A stretch of 64,000 nt of DNA from Escherichia coli (GTDB lineage Bacteria > Pseudomonadota > Gammaproteobacteria > Enterobacterales > Enterobacteriaceae): NCBI RefSeq assembly GCF_024502345.1, contig NZ_JALDNN010000001.1. One strand, 5' to 3'. Position 1 is the stretch's first letter, and each line of letters begins with the position of its first letter. The notes under the pieces were generated by a model, which saw only the letters and a list, made by a program, of their open reading frames with translations, searched no databases and had not been told where the DNA came from. This document shows positions 11,560 to 49,125 of this stretch, in pieces. The position numbers and the translations under genes are program-made.

Positions 11560-11956
11560 TCTCATCTGAGATATCTCTTGGCCCTGCAGGCTGAGGCGCA
11601 ACCAACCGGGTCGGAAGTCTCTCGAAGAAACCACCACCACCATGATGATGAAAACCCCGGTTATTTTTATAACTATTGAAGTTACTGTCGGTAGTGAGAA
11701 GGATGTTGCACTGGTGCGAGCAGTCAACAACAACGACATCACCTGCATTCAGGTGCATTCGTTTGTGAAGAAATTGCATAAGTCTCCTTATCAAGAGGCA
11801 ATCAGCACTCCTCTCAAGGCTGGTACGCCAACGTCCCACCGCTGACGGGCTGAGCCATTACCTTACCCAGACTCAACGATAAGTAACATCCTGATATTCA
11901 GACAGTAACTGTAATCGATAATGCTGAAGAATAGGCAGTAAATACAGGTGACTGAT

Positions 11957-12595
11957 ATGGCAACACTGAAGGATTTATCAAACCAGTTAAAGCAACTGCA
12001 AAAGCAAATCCCGTTTGCCACAGCTCAGGCGATGACAAAAGTTGTACGCCAGATTGAGTTGGCTCAGAAGACGGCATTCGAACGACATCTGGAGAGCCCC
12101 ACGCCGTTTACCGTTAAATCAGTTGGTTCGGTGGCGGCAAGAAAGAACAATCTGACCGCAAAGGTTTTTGTCCGTGATACCGCTGCTGGTTATCTGGAAC
12201 CATTCGAGTTTGGCGGAGAGCACAAGCTCAATAGCCAGGCTCTATTAAATCCCAAGAACGTTAAGCTAAACAAATACGGCAACATGCCGCGTAATAAGCT
12301 CTCACAGCTTAAAGCAAAGGAAAATGTATTCGTAGGTGAGGTTGATGGCGTTAACGCTGTCTGGCAGCGTAAGAAGCCGATGAAAGCTAAGAAGCGACGG
12401 GCCAAACGTTCCGCTAACGGGACGCGAAGACCGAAACGCAAACAGCGTTCTCCAAAGCTTTTGATCCGGTTTGGTGATGCGCTACCTGTGACTCCAGTGC
12501 TGGGGTATATGGATAGGGCCCGTACCATGGCGAACGCACTGCTACCGTCTGCTTTAAATCAGGCGATAGCAGAAGCCATCAGGACGGCAAAATAA
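11957..12595 (+). CDS. hypothetical phage protein with highly basic segment
   Basis: 213 aa (alternative GTG start at 11948); SD aggtga; region RKKPMKAKKRRAKRSANGTRRPKRKQRSPK suggests nucleic-acid binding. Confidence 0.6.
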   Translation: MATLKDLSNQLKQLQKQIPFATAQAMTKVVRQIELAQKTAFERHLESPTPFTVKSVGSVAARKNNLTAKVFVRDTAAGYLEPFEFGGEHKLNSQALLNPKNVKLNKYGNMPRNKLSQLKAKENVFVGEVDGVNAVWQRKKPMKAKKRRAKRSANGTRRPKRKQRSPKLLIRFGDALPVTPVLGYMDRARTMANALLPSALNQAIAEAIRTAK

Positions 12596-12605
12596 AAGCA
12601 GTAAC

Positions 12606-13109
12606 TTATAAGTTAATTTCGCAAGCTTTTATGAAGCTGTTTACTGCAGTTGTCGATCCAGAAACATTGGCTGACATGGAATGCTGGTTTCCGCCATCCT
12701 TTGTTTGCACACCAACTAACACTTTGGATTTCGCCCCCTGAAGCTGCTTAAGCACTGTTTTCAGTTGGTCCGTGTCATCCGATTGAATCTGGAGGCTCTG
12801 AACATTACGTCTTGAAAGGGTAGCATCGAGCTTCACTGCGGTATTCCCGTCGACCTTCATTATCAGGTCCATTGGTACCTCTGATAGTGATTCGGTGCTT
12901 TTATCCATTTCAACGTATGCCGCCGATAGCTTTTCTTTAGTGCAGTCAAACACAATGGCGCCATTGTCGGATGAAACCTCGCCAAGCATCATTGCTTTCT
13001 TACCACCAGAGAAAAGGTCATCTTCAGTATTAGTTACCCACTGGGCATGAGCAATTGGTGATGCCAGCACTGCGGCTACGAAAGTTATTTTGATTATATT
13101 GTTACCCAT
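12606..13109 (-). CDS. secreted/periplasmic protein of unknown function (opposite-strand cargo gene)
   Basis: 168 aa; strong SD aaggagaatgta; signal peptide MGNNIIKITFVAAVLASPIAHA|QW; convergent with and 10 bp from the preceding gene. Confidence 0.6.
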   Translation of the reverse strand: MGNNIIKITFVAAVLASPIAHAQWVTNTEDDLFSGGKKAMMLGEVSSDNGAIVFDCTKEKLSAAYVEMDKSTESLSEVPMDLIMKVDGNTAVKLDATLSRRNVQSLQIQSDDTDQLKTVLKQLQGAKSKVLVGVQTKDGGNQHSMSANVSGSTTAVNSFIKACEINL

Positions 13110-13252
13110 TACATTCTCCTTGTATTGAATAGGAATAATCATAGTCGGAGCGAATGGTCGAAGCCATTAAAAAAATGGGTCCTTCCTGAGACTTTTGTAA
13201 GGCACGGGCATTGCGCGCCGCGGTGTTTTCCTAGCTACAACTTTCAGATTTG

Positions 13253-13402
13253 TGTCCCATGTCCCACCTCTGGCGATCATTACGGACACCTCGCCAGCTC
13301 TGGCTATTCCAGTTTATTCCAGTGGGACATTCTGGTGGGACATGGCAAAAATGTCCCAGGCGAATGTCCCACCCCAGAAAATGTCCCAGGTGATGTCCCA
13401 TG
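13253..13402. repeat. Cluster of eight TGTCCCA/TGGGACA heptamer repeats immediately upstream of terminase small subunit
   Basis: Copies at 13253, 13260, 13323(rc), 13336(rc), 13352, 13365, 13382, 13394; the last overlaps the terS ATG. Confidence 0.7.
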
Positions 13403-13969
13403 ACCACGATGAACCAGAGTCAGTACGCACAACATTCAGGTGTGGATCGCAAAACAATTGGTCGGTGGATTAAAGCCGGGCGCTTCATTGTGATGGACGG
13501 AGACCTGATTGACGTAGAGGCCAGCGATGCGGCATTGAAGAAAAACCGCGATGGCAAAGACCCGCGCGCCTCGAACGCGAAGAAAAAGAAAACTCCCGTC
13601 GTTAGCGATAACGATGATGACGGTGATGAAATCAATAAAACTGTCCGCCAGATAATGCTCACTGAAGGGGCAGATCTTTCGAGAGAGGAAGCGGGACGTA
13701 TCCGCGAGAATTACATGGCCCTGCAGGCAAAGCTGCAGTATGAAAAAGACAGCGGCCAGCTTATTGAGCTGACAGCAGCCGAGGAGGTTTTATTCAACGC
13801 CTTTCGCCAACAGCGTGATGCCTGGCTTAACTGGCCGTCCAGGGTGGCGCCGCTAATGGCTGCTGATCTGGATGTACCGGCGGACAGGATGACAGAGGTG
13901 CTGATTGAACATGTCCACAAACACATCTCAGTCCTCGGAGAGCCAGAGTTTAACCCGGCAGAAGATTGA
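13400..13969 (+). CDS. terminase small subunit (Nu1-like, N-terminal HTH)
   Basis: 189 aa; N-terminal ..VDRKTIGRWIKAGRF.. winged-helix pattern as in lambda Nu1; followed by large terminase. Confidence 0.7.
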   Translation: MTTMNQSQYAQHSGVDRKTIGRWIKAGRFIVMDGDLIDVEASDAALKKNRDGKDPRASNAKKKKTPVVSDNDDDGDEINKTVRQIMLTEGADLSREEAGRIRENYMALQAKLQYEKDSGQLIELTAAEEVLFNAFRQQRDAWLNWPSRVAPLMAADLDVPADRMTEVLIEHVHKHISVLGEPEFNPAED

Positions 13970-16034
13970 GCGTCTTGAATTAAGCGTCCGCAAAGGCTGG
14001 ACACCCCCGCCGCGTATCAGTGTGCCGCAGTGGGCAGATGACTATCGTAAGCTGGCAAAAGAGGCTGGGAGCACTTCGGGAAACTGGGAAACATCGACGG
14101 TAGAAATTGCCCGCGGACCGATGCTTGCCGCGACGGAGTCCGGGGTTCATATCATCACTGTAATGTGCTGTACCCAGTTGATGAAGACAGCACTGCTGGA
14201 AAACCTTTTTGGCTATTTTGCCCACCTCGATCCTTGTCCGATACTGCTGCTGCAGCCGAAAGAAGAAGCCGCTGAACAGTTTTCGAAAGAGCGTATTAGC
14301 CCGCTGGTAAGGGTGACGCCGGTACTGCGTAAAATCATCGGTGATTCGAAACAGAAAAGCTCGAAAGAAACCATTCTTTACAAGGCATTCACTGGCGGAT
14401 TTCTGGCGCTGGCGGGTGCTGGTAGCCCTGATAACCTTGCGCGTCGTCCGATTCGTGTCCTGCTGGCGGATGAAGTGGACAAGTACCCGATAACCCGCGA
14501 AGGCGATCCAATTGCGCTGGCCGAAGAGCGTACAGCGACATTTGGCCTGACCTGGCTGTCTGTACGCGCCTGTTCGCCGACGGTGGAGGATGAGAGCCGC
14601 ATTGCTGACAGCTACGCCGACTCCGATCAGCGCCGGGCATCTGTGGTTTGCCCGCACTGTGGCCACCGCCAGTTCCCCGACTTTTTCAAACACGTTCAGT
14701 GGCCGAAAGAGGGAGATAAACACCTGACTAAATCGGCGATGCTCTATTGCGAATGCTGTGGTAGTGGCTGGTCCGAAGGACAGCGCCTCAGAGCTCTGCA
14801 CACTATTCGATGGCATCAGACGCGCCCATTTGAGTGCTGCGGGGAGCGGCACTCACCGCTGATGGATTATGACCTTGCCTGGCGGGCGGCAGACGAGGGC
14901 AGCGTTGAAAAGGTCTGGCAATGGTCAGAGTCGGAACGGCATGCGGTCTATCGCGCAATCTGCCCCTCCTGTGGAAAGGAGGCAGTCGATAACCACCACG
15001 CGGGGTACCAGGCATCCAAGCTTTTCAGCCCCTGGCAAAAAGATAAGCCGTCGGATATTGCGAAAAAATATATCGATGCGAAGGGCGATCCGGATAAGGA
15101 ACAGGCGTGGTGGAATACCCAGATGGGGCTTCCGCACCGACCTAATCATGGGAAACAGCTCCCTGTTGATGTTCTGCTGGCGCGCCGGGAAATATTTCCG
15201 GCCGTCGTTCCGGACGGGGTGGCATTGTTAACAGCTGGAGTTGATACCCAGGACGATCGCTTCGAAATTACGATCACCGGCTGGGGGAGAGATGAAGAAT
15301 CGTGGTCGGTCGCGCATGACGTTATTTATGGTGACCTTGAGACGGAAGAACCCTGGAAGCGACTGGATGCATACCTGAAACAGATCTGGCGACGTGGTGA
15401 CGGGCGCGGCCTGAATATCATGGCAACGTGCATGGACTCCGGTGGCCACCATACGCAGAAGGTATACGAATTCGCCAAAGAGCGTCTTGGCCGTCGTGTC
15501 TGGGCAATTAAGGGGGAGTCTGCACAGGGAGGTAAACGCAATCCTGTCTGGCCGACCAAACGACCATCATCGAAAAGCAAAGCCAGTTTCCGCCCTGTCA
15601 TTCTGGGGGTTAACTCAGCGAAAGACGTGATACGCGGTCGCCTGCATCTTGAGCCACCCAAACCTGGCGCCGCCGCTGCGGGTTATATGCATTTTCCTGA
15701 CGATCGCGATCTCGGGTACTTCAATCAGCTGCTGGCGGAGCGACTGGTTTACAAAGTCATTTCCGGGCAGCGGTACAGTATCTGGGAAGCAATACCAGGA
15801 CGAGCTAACGAAGCGCTTGACTGCCTCGTTTACAGCTATGCCGCGCTGTGCGGTCTCAAACATATGGGGTTAAAACTCAACGTCCGGGCCGCCAACCTCG
15901 AAGCCGATCCGGATAAGTTCCTGCCAGCGCCAGTTGGACAGGAAGAAAAAATCAATTACGAGCTGCCGGGTGCGGTTATTGAAGAACCAGCGCCGGTCAA
16001 ACGTAAGCGAATATCGCAACTCCTGCCGAAATAA
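13905..16034 (+). CDS. terminase large subunit (lambda gpA-like)
   Basis: 709 aa, position and size; overlaps terS 3' end as in lambda Nu1/A. Confidence 0.8.
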   Translation: MNMSTNTSQSSESQSLTRQKIERLELSVRKGWTPPPRISVPQWADDYRKLAKEAGSTSGNWETSTVEIARGPMLAATESGVHIITVMCCTQLMKTALLENLFGYFAHLDPCPILLLQPKEEAAEQFSKERISPLVRVTPVLRKIIGDSKQKSSKETILYKAFTGGFLALAGAGSPDNLARRPIRVLLADEVDKYPITREGDPIALAEERTATFGLTWLSVRACSPTVEDESRIADSYADSDQRRASVVCPHCGHRQFPDFFKHVQWPKEGDKHLTKSAMLYCECCGSGWSEGQRLRALHTIRWHQTRPFECCGERHSPLMDYDLAWRAADEGSVEKVWQWSESERHAVYRAICPSCGKEAVDNHHAGYQASKLFSPWQKDKPSDIAKKYIDAKGDPDKEQAWWNTQMGLPHRPNHGKQLPVDVLLARREIFPAVVPDGVALLTAGVDTQDDRFEITITGWGRDEESWSVAHDVIYGDLETEEPWKRLDAYLKQIWRRGDGRGLNIMATCMDSGGHHTQKVYEFAKERLGRRVWAIKGESAQGGKRNPVWPTKRPSSKSKASFRPVILGVNSAKDVIRGRLHLEPPKPGAAAAGYMHFPDDRDLGYFNQLLAERLVYKVISGQRYSIWEAIPGRANEALDCLVYSYAALCGLKHMGLKLNVRAANLEADPDKFLPAPVGQEEKINYELPGAVIEEPAPVKRKRISQLLPK

Positions 16035-35201: not shown

Positions 35202-35278
35202 TGGTCGGCACGAGAGGATTTGAACCTCCGACCCCCGACACCCCATGACGGTGCGCTACCAGGCTGCGCTACGTGCCG
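35202..35278 (-). tRNA. proL: tRNA-Pro
   Basis: 77 nt; reverse complement reads CGGCACGTAGCGCAGCCTGGTAGCGCACCGTCATGGGGTGTCGGGGGTCGGAGGTTCAAATCCTCTCGTGCCGACCA. Confidence 0.95.
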
Positions 35279-47310: not shown

Positions 47311-49125
47311 CTACTCTCCCTGTTGCCTGGCTGACGGCAGTTTGGCCGCTTTATTAACGTCATACCACCAGGTATCGATACCCAGGCTGTAAACAGGGCG
47401 TACAGCGGGTTGGGAGAATTTATCCCACCAGGCGAGACGGTCTTCCGCCATGTACCACATTGGCAGCATGTAATAATTCCACGTTAATACGCGATCCAGT
47501 GCTCGCCCTAACGGCAGTAATTTTTCTTTATTTCCCTGCGCGGCAATAATTTGGTTGATCAGCGAGTCGATAACCGGGCTTTGCACGCCGGGGGCATTAT
47601 AAGTGGAATTGATATATTCCGATGACCAGGAAATCTGTAAATCGGAACTGGGCCACGGCATCGCCCGCCATACGCGCGGCATCATGTCATAGTCGCGACT
47701 GCGCATGCGGTTGGTGATTTGCGAGTTATCCACCTTGCGAATGTCCATGTTGATACCCAGCCGTTGCAGGCTGTGCTGGAACGGCAATACCCACTGACTA
47801 TTGCTGCTTGCAGGAAGCAATAATTCAAAGCTGAGTGGCTGACCCGTTGTGGCATTAACGCGTTGCTGACCCTTCAGCACCCAGCCCGCTTCGTTGAGAA
47901 GTTTGTCGGCTTTTAACAGGTTGTCACGATCGTAGCCATCGCCTTTAGATACCGGCGGCTGGTAGATTTGTGTGAAGACTTCTGACGGTAGATCTTTTTT
48001 CATTGGTGCCAGAAGCACCAGCTCCGCGGCGTCGGGGTAATTTCTGGCCGCGTATTCGGTATTCTGAAAATAACTGTTCGTGCGACTCCAGGCATTGTAA
48101 AACAACGCCTTGTTCATCCATTCAAAGTCAAAGGCGAGGGTGATTGCTTCGCGGACCCGGCGATCGCTGAATACCGGACGTTGGATATTAAACGCCAGCC
48201 AGCGCGTATCCTGGGCTGATTCGTTCTTTTGCTCATCTTTGATGATGTATTTTTTATCGAAATTTTTACCGGTATAACGCGTGGCCCAGTTTTTAGCGTC
48301 GTTTTCCATACGCAAATCAAAGGCACCTGCTTTAAACGCTTCAAAGGCGACATTATCATCGAGGTAATAATCGTAGCGAATGGTGTCGAAATTCCAGCGT
48401 CCACGGTTTACCGGTAAGTTTGCTGCCCAGTAATCTTTCACGCGGGAATAGACAATATTTTGCCCCATTTTCCAGGACGTAATTCGGTACGGACCACTGG
48501 CAAGCGGAGGCGTGGCGAGTGGATCGCTAAGTTTGTGATCCTTCCAGTACTTTTCTGGAAATACCGGCAGCGAAAACAGACTCAACATATCTTCTTTGCC
48601 GGGTTTAGCTAACTCAATGCGCACGGTTAACGGCGCAATGGCTTTGACGGTGGTGCCTTTGTAGACCAGACGAAATTGCGGCACGCCTTCGGTCATAAAT
48701 TTTTGAAAAGTAAACTCTACATCGCGGGCAGTAATGGGCGAACCATCATGAAAACGGGCGCGCGGATTAATAGCTACCTCCACCCAGGAATAATCGTCAG
48801 CATAGCGTGCACTTTCAGCAATCAGCGGGTAATAACTGCCTGGTTCGTCATCGGAAGTCGTAAATAGCGTGTCGTACAGCTGCTCGGTGCGTGCGCCCGG
48901 GTTGCCGCGCAGTGCATAGCGGTTGAAATTATCGAAGGTGCCGAGGGCTGACAACGTTATCTGCCCACCTTTTGGCGCGGCGGGGTTCACATAATCAAAA
49001 TGGTTGAAATTAAACGCGTACCGGGGTTCGCCCAGCACGGCAAAGGCATAGCTTTCCTTGATAGCCTGCGCCTGCGCACCAAAGGTGAACAGAGCGATAA
49101 ACAGCAGCAGTATGCGCACAATCAT
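47311..49125 (-). CDS. yejA: peptide ABC transporter periplasmic substrate-binding protein
   Basis: 604 aa with signal peptide. Confidence 0.95.
   Translation of the reverse strand: MIVRILLLFIALFTFGAQAQAIKESYAFAVLGEPRYAFNFNHFDYVNPAAPKGGQITLSALGTFDNFNRYALRGNPGARTEQLYDTLFTTSDDEPGSYYPLIAESARYADDYSWVEVAINPRARFHDGSPITARDVEFTFQKFMTEGVPQFRLVYKGTTVKAIAPLTVRIELAKPGKEDMLSLFSLPVFPEKYWKDHKLSDPLATPPLASGPYRITSWKMGQNIVYSRVKDYWAANLPVNRGRWNFDTIRYDYYLDDNVAFEAFKAGAFDLRMENDAKNWATRYTGKNFDKKYIIKDEQKNESAQDTRWLAFNIQRPVFSDRRVREAITLAFDFEWMNKALFYNAWSRTNSYFQNTEYAARNYPDAAELVLLAPMKKDLPSEVFTQIYQPPVSKGDGYDRDNLLKADKLLNEAGWVLKGQQRVNATTGQPLSFELLLPASSNSQWVLPFQHSLQRLGINMDIRKVDNSQITNRMRSRDYDMMPRVWRAMPWPSSDLQISWSSEYINSTYNAPGVQSPVIDSLINQIIAAQGNKEKLLPLGRALDRVLTWNYYMLPMWYMAEDRLAWWDKFSQPAVRPVYSLGIDTWWYDVNKAAKLPSARQQGE

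Follow-up and report, generated by a model that had tools for sequence, protein, structure and literature searches.

What is a dense cluster of a single 7-bp sequence doing directly in front of the small terminase gene of an Escherichia coli prophage? The prophage lies in the window analysed here, a 64,000-nt stretch of E. coli contig NZ_JALDNN010000001.1 to which all coordinates refer, and has lambdoid early genes, a Q antiterminator, a lysis module and a head module in lambda order (small terminase, gpA-type terL, gpW, portal, S49 protease, decoration protein and major capsid protein). A first-pass annotation had noticed eight copies of TGTCCCA, in both orientations, just upstream of the small terminase gene terS, and had suggested recognition sites for the small subunit (cosB- or pac-like) or a late-gene operator. 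We conclude that the array is very probably the cosB of a lambda-type cohesive-end packaging site (cosQ 13177–13183, cosN approximately 13204–13225, cosB 13253–13400), with heptamers that would be contacted by the winged helix-turn-helix (wHTH) of the small subunit, TerS. This reading draws on the anatomy of the array, its cosQ/cosN context, a lambda-like geometry, the homology of TerS and the large subunit TerL, co-variation with the TerS recognition helix, a conservation footprint and the fixed position of the first site at +46 to +48; the comparative evidence carries most of the weight.

All eight exact copies were located within 148 bp (13253–13400). Top-strand copies start at 13253, 13260 (abutting the first), 13352, 13365, 13382 and 13394, and bottom-strand copies, where the top strand reads TGGGACA, at 13323 and 13336. 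As first described, the last copy overlaps the terS start codon: the final A of 13394–13400 is the A of the ATG at 13400. Only one further copy occurs in the window (23197, minus strand), and the total of 9 is unremarkable against a shuffle expectation of 7.1 ± 2.6, so that the signal lies entirely in the clustering. There it is strong, in keeping with the earlier claim of a density far beyond chance: the Poisson probability of at least 8 copies in 148 bp is ~9e-19, and the array is the densest 7-mer cluster of the window, the next unrelated one being a codon repeat with 5 copies. An apparent avoidance of the heptamer elsewhere in the window (1 copy versus ~7 expected) was dropped as a finding. 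One-mismatch variants also fell below expectation (100 observed versus 164 ± 13 in dinucleotide shuffles), indicating that the shuffle null overestimates the background for a motif with G/C runs and that the depletion of exact copies should not be over-read.

The copies form four pairs. Two abutting direct heptamers (TGTCCCATGTCCCA, 13253–13266, plus strand) are followed by two inverted heptamers 13 bp apart (13323–13342, minus strand), two direct heptamers 13 bp apart (AAAATGTCCCAGGCGAATGTCCCA, 13352–13371, plus strand) and two more direct heptamers 12 bp apart (AAAATGTCCCAGGTGATGTCCCA, 13382–13400, plus strand). The last pair is a 30-bp-offset copy of the preceding one, and together they make two offset copies of the unit AAAATGTCCCAGGYGA(A)TGTCCCA. 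Together with 13351–13372, which holds the first of the two spaced direct pairs, the inverted pair makes up a 22-nt inverted repeat of 86% complementarity. The four downstream copies read, in order, AATGTCCCAG, AATGTCCCAC, AATGTCCCAG and GATGTCCCAT; the trailing G or C first ascribed to all four is present in each except the last.

Upstream of the array we found counterparts of the other two parts of a cos site. The heptamer GGGTCCT at 13177–13183 (plus strand) is identical to lambda cosQ and lies 31 nt before the predicted top-strand nick; in lambda, with the genome ends joined for alignment, cosQ (lambda 48473–48479) lies 30 nt ahead of the nick. A cosN-like nicking region follows at 13204–13225, with a predicted 12-nt 5' cohesive end, GCATTGCGCGCC, at 13208–13219. 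Its register is uncertain by 1 nt and becomes 13207–13218 if aligned on lambda. Aligning the joined lambda ends to 13150–13420 recovered a shared cosQ, the nick context ACG|G and a shared right flank, CGCGG(T)GTTTTC. The same 12 nt, GCATTGCGCGCC, form the cohesive end (annotated cosL) of Serratia phage vB_SspM_BZS1 (BZS1; L067), whose 12-nt 5' overhang was derived from PhageTerm analysis of virion reads and from PCR compared with the prophage junction (PMC7556043). Against the lambda end, GCATTGCGCGCC is identical at 5/12 positions in the BZS1 register and at 3/12 in the lambda-aligned register; although cosQ is identical, the predicted cohesive end is thus not 'lambda-like' as PMC4669245 defines it.

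Both cosQ and the 12 nt of cosN are unique in the window, cosN is ~99% conserved across all classes of relatives described below, and all relatives start to align exactly at cosQ, regardless of what lies upstream. Taking 13208 as the predicted left end, the heptamers lie 46–193 bp to the right of cosQ/cosN. The intervening segment (13226–13252), partly conserved in the conservation profile (GTTTTCCTAGCTACAA), takes the position of lambda I2 (PMC4669245). One divergent relative (L146, IMGVR_UViG_2846530093_000007) has a cosN region reading ATGGGACATTGTGCGCCCC in place of ACGGGCATTGCGCGCCGC, ~150–190 bp upstream of terS, and its cohesive end probably differs from GCATTGCGCGCC; it keeps only 5 TGTCCCA copies.

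The layout to the right of cosN resembles that of lambda, in whose complex cosB R2 runs opposite to the other two R sequences, R3 and R1, and the spacing between cosN and R3 is critical (PMC4669245). Counted from the predicted left end, the abutting direct pair (the R3 equivalent) lies at +46 and +53, and the CGTTTCC core of lambda R3 at +53. The inverted pair (R2 equivalent) lies at +116 and +129, the lambda core at +114; the direct heptamers (the R1 equivalent and a second R1-like unit) lie at +145, +158, +175 and +187, the R1 core at +155; and the terS start codon lies at +193, that of Nu1 at +191. Lambda cos is thus matched in an identical cosQ, alignable cosN flanks, a predicted 12-nt 5' overhang, the direct/inverted/direct order of sites and similar distances. 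It differs in its recognition sequence, the CGTTTCC core being unrelated to TGTCCCA, and the tail module of the window prophage, unlike that of lambda, is Mu-like and contractile.

The adjoining genes encode terminase subunits of the lambda kind. TerS (13400–13969, plus strand, 189 aa) belongs to phrog_57, the family of lambda Nu1, and both proteins match the family over their full length; RefSeq labels the gene 'hypothetical protein' and leaves the cos site unannotated. TerL (13905–16034, plus strand; the RefSeq start in identical prophages is 13911) is a gpA-type large terminase/endonuclease of phrog_15, 29% identical to lambda gpA over ~650 aa (E=2e-60). TerS comprises an N-terminal wHTH of ~50 aa, with a predicted recognition helix RKTIGRWIKA at residues 17–26, a variable linker and a C-terminal part of ~65 aa that barely varies among E. 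coli-type TerS proteins, whichever of the two heptamer classes they belong to. A small terminase of the gpNu1 family is expected to have an N-terminal wHTH, a self-association or coiled-coil region and, at the C-terminus, a segment that binds TerL. Searching PDB sequences with TerS gave no Nu1 match, only spurious repeated hits to RecA fusion constructs, and NCBIfam gave none above cut-offs, with a weak match to HTH_BldC.

Structure prediction was more informative for the N-terminus than for the whole protein. The full-length AlphaFold2 model was poor (predicted local distance difference test score, pLDDT, 60), but the isolated N-terminal 59 aa reached pLDDT 83, and their first 50 residues were arranged as strand-helix-turn-helix-wing-helix, with residues 17–26 as helix 2. 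A Foldseek search of the PDB with this model returned the gpNu1 DNA-binding domain (1j9i; TMq 0.72, probability 0.99, E=0.11), 7lwr (TMq 0.66), an entry whose title concerns viral DNA-packaging motor assembly, and mycobacteriophage Xis, BldC, RacA and MerR-family proteins. As modelled, the N-terminus is a MerR-like wHTH resembling the gpNu1 domain, which is supportive rather than decisive.

If TerS reads the heptamers, protein and DNA should change together in relatives. Scanning viral contigs for the cosN pattern and the TerS C-terminus added ~130 loci, and de-duplication left 81 distinct sequences, each consisting of the TerS N-terminus and 260 bp upstream. These fell into two classes. Class A (58/81) has the helix DRKT[IV]GRW and 5–9 TGTCCCA with zero GGTAACA; class B (23/81) has the helix SRKTVTxW and 3–8 GGTAACA with zero TGTCCCA. 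The association had no exceptions in the 81 sequences. In class B, GGTAACA or its complement TGTTACC stands at class-A positions and orientations, as two abutting direct copies, two inverted copies and 3–4 direct copies, the last abutting the ATG. Diverged E. coli prophages (82–84% identity) retain the TGTCCCA array. The cosQ–cosN block, the TerS C-terminus and TerL are constant between classes; the two kinds of TerS are nearly identical over their C-terminal ~65 residues and diverge over the N-terminal ~125, including the HTH. Within or beside the recognition helix, residues 16, 20–22 and 24–27 differ, and from a weak, marginal alignment we infer that these include the equivalents of Nu1 residues 20 and 24, the specificity positions that distinguish lambda from phage 21 (PMC4669245). 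Comparison with homologous phages had been suggested as a check on the array; relatives without TGTCCCA proved to differ in the TerS DNA-binding domain and to carry another heptamer in its place, position for position, a result that supports the cosB reading and does not refute it.

Two side observations concern the make-up of these classes. Class-B arrays (for example, L006 1669–1690) have conserved extra half-sites, GTTACGTTTTGTTACG, right after the abutting GGTAACA pair (GTTAC being the complement of GTAAC), of which class A has no conserved counterpart. In L048 (IMGVR_UViG_3300030512_000021), TerS joins a class-A N-terminus (1 to ~95) and a TGTCCCA array to a class-B-type middle, NYLALLTKLEFQQKDGQLIEM; this natural mosaic indicates that DNA-binding domain and cosB move together as a module by recombination.

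Within each class the heptamers leave a footprint. Their columns are 97% conserved in class A versus 70% for spacers (p=9e-14), and 96% versus 75% in class B (p=1e-10). Individual copies are kept in 46–57 of the 58 class-A sequences: 57/58 and 52/58 for the R3-equivalent pair, 46/58 and 51/58 for the R2-equivalent pair, and 57/58 and 55/58 for the R1-equivalent pair. Inverted copies number 1–3 and spacings vary in more distant class-A relatives (MTQIEYAKHAGVDRKTIGRW...), which keep the motif, the order of orientations and the first pair, at +47/+54. The first site falls at +46 to +48 in every lineage and motif class, which agrees with lambda, where the distance from cosN to R3 is critical.

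These patterns bear on the idea that the repeats are non-functional duplication debris, co-inherited with the adjacent 5' end of terS. The array does adjoin the coding sequence of the TerS N-terminus, so linkage alone would yield some association, and certain prophages show decay of individual copies (for example, to TGGGGCA or TGCCCCA). However, debris would not be expected to have heptamer columns far better conserved than the spacers, nor would four different motifs (two of them described below) hold the same positions and orientations, three of them flanking a recognisably related cosB scaffold. In two isolated phages the motif is moreover held within coding sequence as fixed GGT-AAC codons. 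We regard the debris explanation as hardly credible.

Between the heptamers, two stretches behave differently. A variable G+C-rich spacer (13267–13304), of low conservation, takes the position of lambda I1. Next to it, abutting the inverted heptamers, is the direct repeat TATTCCAGTTTATTCCAG (13305–13322, plus strand; two TATTCC, 10 bp apart), whose columns are ~70–99% conserved among the 58 class-A sequences, in contrast to the spacer next to it. At a similar place, class B reads ATATTCC. The class-A repeat lies at a point where one might look for a bending element, and it may be a bending locus or a site for another factor.

The relationship between classes A and B has a precedent in lambda and phage 21, which share cosQ, cosN and the parts that interact with TerL and differ in the TerS recognition helix and the cosB repeats (PMC4669245); unlike in that pair, class specificity here is proposed from sequence comparison. 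The 'simple' cosB of phage N15 offers a second parallel: R3 lies at bp 48–59, and an inverted accessory copy (rR2) lies ~200 bp away inside the terS gene, gene 1 (PMC4669245), much as BZS1 has copies of its motif at 48/55/67, an inverted one at 218 and more inside terS. The sites of the window prophage differ from N15 in lying entirely upstream of terS, and the in-gene copies of BZS1 and Citrobacter phage phiNP (L066) differ in numbering 4–6 and in encoding Gly-Asn repeats.

BZS1 and phiNP are the closest isolated phages. Both share the cosQ–cosN block with the window prophage (the 12-nt end being identical in BZS1) and carry a p72-like gene upstream of cos. Their TerS shares only ~28–31% identity with the window TerS as a whole and ~33% across the N-terminal part that can be matched, and its C-terminus is different. 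Both have the class-B helix, with GGTAACA at +48/+55/+67. As in classes A and B, the last upstream copy in BZS1 touches or just precedes the terS start codon. In each phage, only three copies lie upstream of terS and 4–6 more inside it (BZS1 218–303; phiNP 1375–1432), spaced 12–15 bp apart in BZS1 and 12–27 bp in phiNP, with one inverted copy in BZS1 (at 218). The in-gene copies are read as GGT-AAC codons and give the TerS linker its Gly-Asn repeats (GNKQGNKTGNRSSGNKSGNK), so that putative cosB sites double as coding sequence. The BZS1 paper, which reports the cohesive end and describes TerS as having no homologues, makes no mention of the repeats (PMC7556043), and the phiNP paper mentions neither repeats, cos nor terminase.

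In-gene copies also speak for a pac-type (headful) initiation site, since pac phages typically have several TerS-binding motifs within terS or close to it. A site of this kind, recognised by TerS but not part of cos, was among the first suggestions for the array. It is at odds with the gpA-type TerL, with the presence of cosQ and cosN homologues, with the defined 12-nt cohesive ends of the related BZS1 and with a lambda-like head module (gpW, portal, S49 protease and decoration protein), and we consider it exceedingly improbable.

Somewhat less remote, though still improbable, is the other original suggestion, that the heptamers form an operator for the late/packaging operon or for a divergent cargo gene, bound by TerS as autoregulator or by another phage regulator. 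The second R1-like unit does span the likely Shine–Dalgarno sequence, AGGTGA (13388–13393), and ends on the A of the terS start codon, and the fold of the TerS N-terminus is shared with the MerR, BldC and Xis regulators, in keeping with the weak HTH_BldC match. Nevertheless, a consensus scan of 12400–13600 detected no sigma-70-like promoter and no terminator. A local promoter would also be unneeded, as a lambda-style Q antiterminator and lysis cassette lie upstream and, by lambda analogy, late transcription is expected to read through cos. The array persists with or without the cargo gene, and an operator leaves its fixed distance from cosN in all lineages unexplained. The divergent cargo promoter proposed at the outset is therefore borne out only as to the gene (12606–13142, minus strand). 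The array may, besides serving as cosB, have a secondary part in autoregulation. Replication-origin iterons, which lie in or beside an initiator gene and adjoin an A+T-rich unwinding region, were rejected as a candidate: the array abuts terS, the repeat sequence tracks the TerS helix, and in the identical prophage the O/P-like replication genes are ~13 kb upstream of the array.

A weak match to the cosQ–cosN block alone led to a third motif. In E. coli VG1046-3E9, an island of ~17 kb between hpt and gcd (L150/L151; 7001–7863 in L150) encodes an integrase, an antirepressor, an Icd-like protein, a toprim primase and a single-stranded DNA-binding protein and, seen end to end, has no capsid gene and no terL. 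To the right of the same cosQ–cosN block it has TTCACAC(TT) repeats, the first at +47, and then a gene for a 194-aa protein that matches the window TerS N-terminus at 51% identity over its first ~65 residues, with the helix SRRSFYNW and an unrelated remainder. A related hpt-adjacent island (1368KP, L152 8627–9528; EC09; 2022CK-00450) has TTGACAC(TT) repeats, the first again at +47, with the helix SRQALYNW; the L152 flank that was examined held no capsid or terL genes. This pair of islands extends the lambda–21 likeness, TTCACAC and TTGACAC differing by a single base. Three of the 4 island host genomes (1368KP, EC09 and 2022CK-00450) also contain the TGTCCCA prophage.

The islands recall EcCICFT073-type phage-inducible chromosomal islands (PICIs), which have a phage-like cosQ/cosN, a different cosB and Rpp, a protein with a TerS-like DNA-binding domain (PMC6739421). 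Unlike Rpp, the ~195-aa island proteins are 51% identical to the TerS N-terminus of this phage family; they gave no sequence match to any solved structure, Rpp (6hlk) included, and belong to no Pfam family. By analogy with Rpp, the islands are probably satellites that redirect the terminase of this phage family. Four motif/helix pairs on one cosQ–cosN background, each with its first site at +46 to +48, seem hard to explain except by protein–DNA recognition.

From these comparisons a mechanism can be proposed. Each TGTCCCA would be a contact site for the N-terminal wHTH of the prophage's own TerS. Bound at the abutting pair at +46/+53, TerS would position the gpA-type TerL at a fixed distance from cosN, where TerL would make the staggered nicks that leave 12-nt 5' ends, GCATTGCGCGCC. 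It would fall to the inverted pair and the two direct pairs to stabilise the post-cleavage terminase–DNA complex and to supply packaging specificity. Physical binding, its stoichiometry, the nick positions in this prophage and separate roles for the four pairs are what we infer here.

Several observations weigh against assigning the array to cosB. Lambda has three 16-bp R sites, and the array has four pairs, or 8 heptamers; spaced at 7 bp, the copies of the first pair are too close together for one helix face to take two independent wHTH domains. No integration host factor (IHF) consensus WATCAANNNNTTR (<=1 mismatch) occurs in 13200–13410, although the same scan recovers lambda I1, and there is none in class-A or class-B cosB. 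However, IHF sites are degenerate and N15 is also without I1 (PMC4669245), so I1 is not strictly defining for a lambda-type cos. On the protein side, BLASTP of TerS against lambda Nu1 aligns 31 aa at the HTH with a marginal E=0.04, Pfam returned no Phage_Nu1 match and only insignificant HTH matches, and the Foldseek E-values are ~0.1 for so small a domain, despite TM scores of 0.66–0.72. The literature searched contains no report of virions from this prophage. Finally, the repeat/helix association could partly come from physical linkage, as adjacent segments move together in mosaics; that objection is countered by BZS1/phiNP and the islands, which are independent lineages. With a cosQ and cosN upstream, the R3/R2/R1 pattern, Nu1 and gpA homologues and the helix association, the original suggestion of small-subunit recognition sites of the cosB kind is the one we retain.

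More broadly, we propose with moderate confidence that the array is one allele of a modular system, in which a single cosQ–cosN–TerL chassis (GCATTGCGCGCC) is combined with at least four swappable heptamer/helix pairs (TGTCCCA/DRKTIGRW, GGTAACA/SRKTVTxW, TTCACAC/SRRSFYNW and TTGACAC/SRQALYNW). Two of these pairs lie on hpt-adjacent candidate-satellite islands that would redirect the terminase to their own cosB, and in BZS1 and phiNP the repeats are carried within terS as Gly-Asn codons. We found no description of such a modular cos/TerS system in the literature searched, nor of this lineage, its heptamers or its alternative specificities there; searches with the repeat and cohesive-end strings led only to the BZS1 paper.

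As a kind of element, a lambda-type cosB is textbook knowledge; more unusual as leads are the islands that resemble satellites and the repeats that encode Gly-Asn inside terS of BZS1 and phiNP. Recognition of cosB by TerS decides which DNA a cos phage packages and, with it, phage specificity, transduction and satellite hijacking. Detailed knowledge of cosB rests on a few lambda-like phages (lambda, 21, N15 and phi80), and the way in which small terminases read DNA remains a matter of debate (PMC11331095). The present lineage amounts to a clean natural experiment: its heptamers are short, exact, present in several copies and fixed in layout, and cosQ, cosN and TerL stay constant while specificity takes at least two and probably four forms. 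Two of these forms are set apart by one base and a few helix residues. The recognition code is thereby directly testable. The results also single out candidate satellites for a prophage family that ~1% of complete E. coli genomes contain, and would allow better annotation of TerS and cos.

The 901 bp around the array are present in 59/5,426 complete E. coli genomes (~1%). Megablast of 13100–14000 against phage collections gave no match, and sensitive blastn only a 76-bp cosQ–cosN match to phiNP, with no close isolated relative. An Rfam scan of the region returned only a chance miRNA match and no RNA family. Upstream of cosQ, a conserved 'minor-tail-like' gene (11948–12595, plus strand; phrog_1924), the homologue of BZS1 p72, is followed by the opposite-strand gene at 12606–13142, which encodes a ~170-aa protein (phrog_19473). 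The latter is present in some relatives, replaced by another gene in L002 and absent in others, with the breakpoint just upstream of cosQ; in this it resembles a moron, located where lambda has bor. Near-identical prophages elsewhere have tRNA-Ile, tRNA-Asn and tRNA-Thr genes in their early or late regions, which the window does not have. Its only tRNA gene, tRNA-Pro(GGG) (35202–35278, minus strand), is a candidate attachment site located just past the prophage's tail-fibre end.

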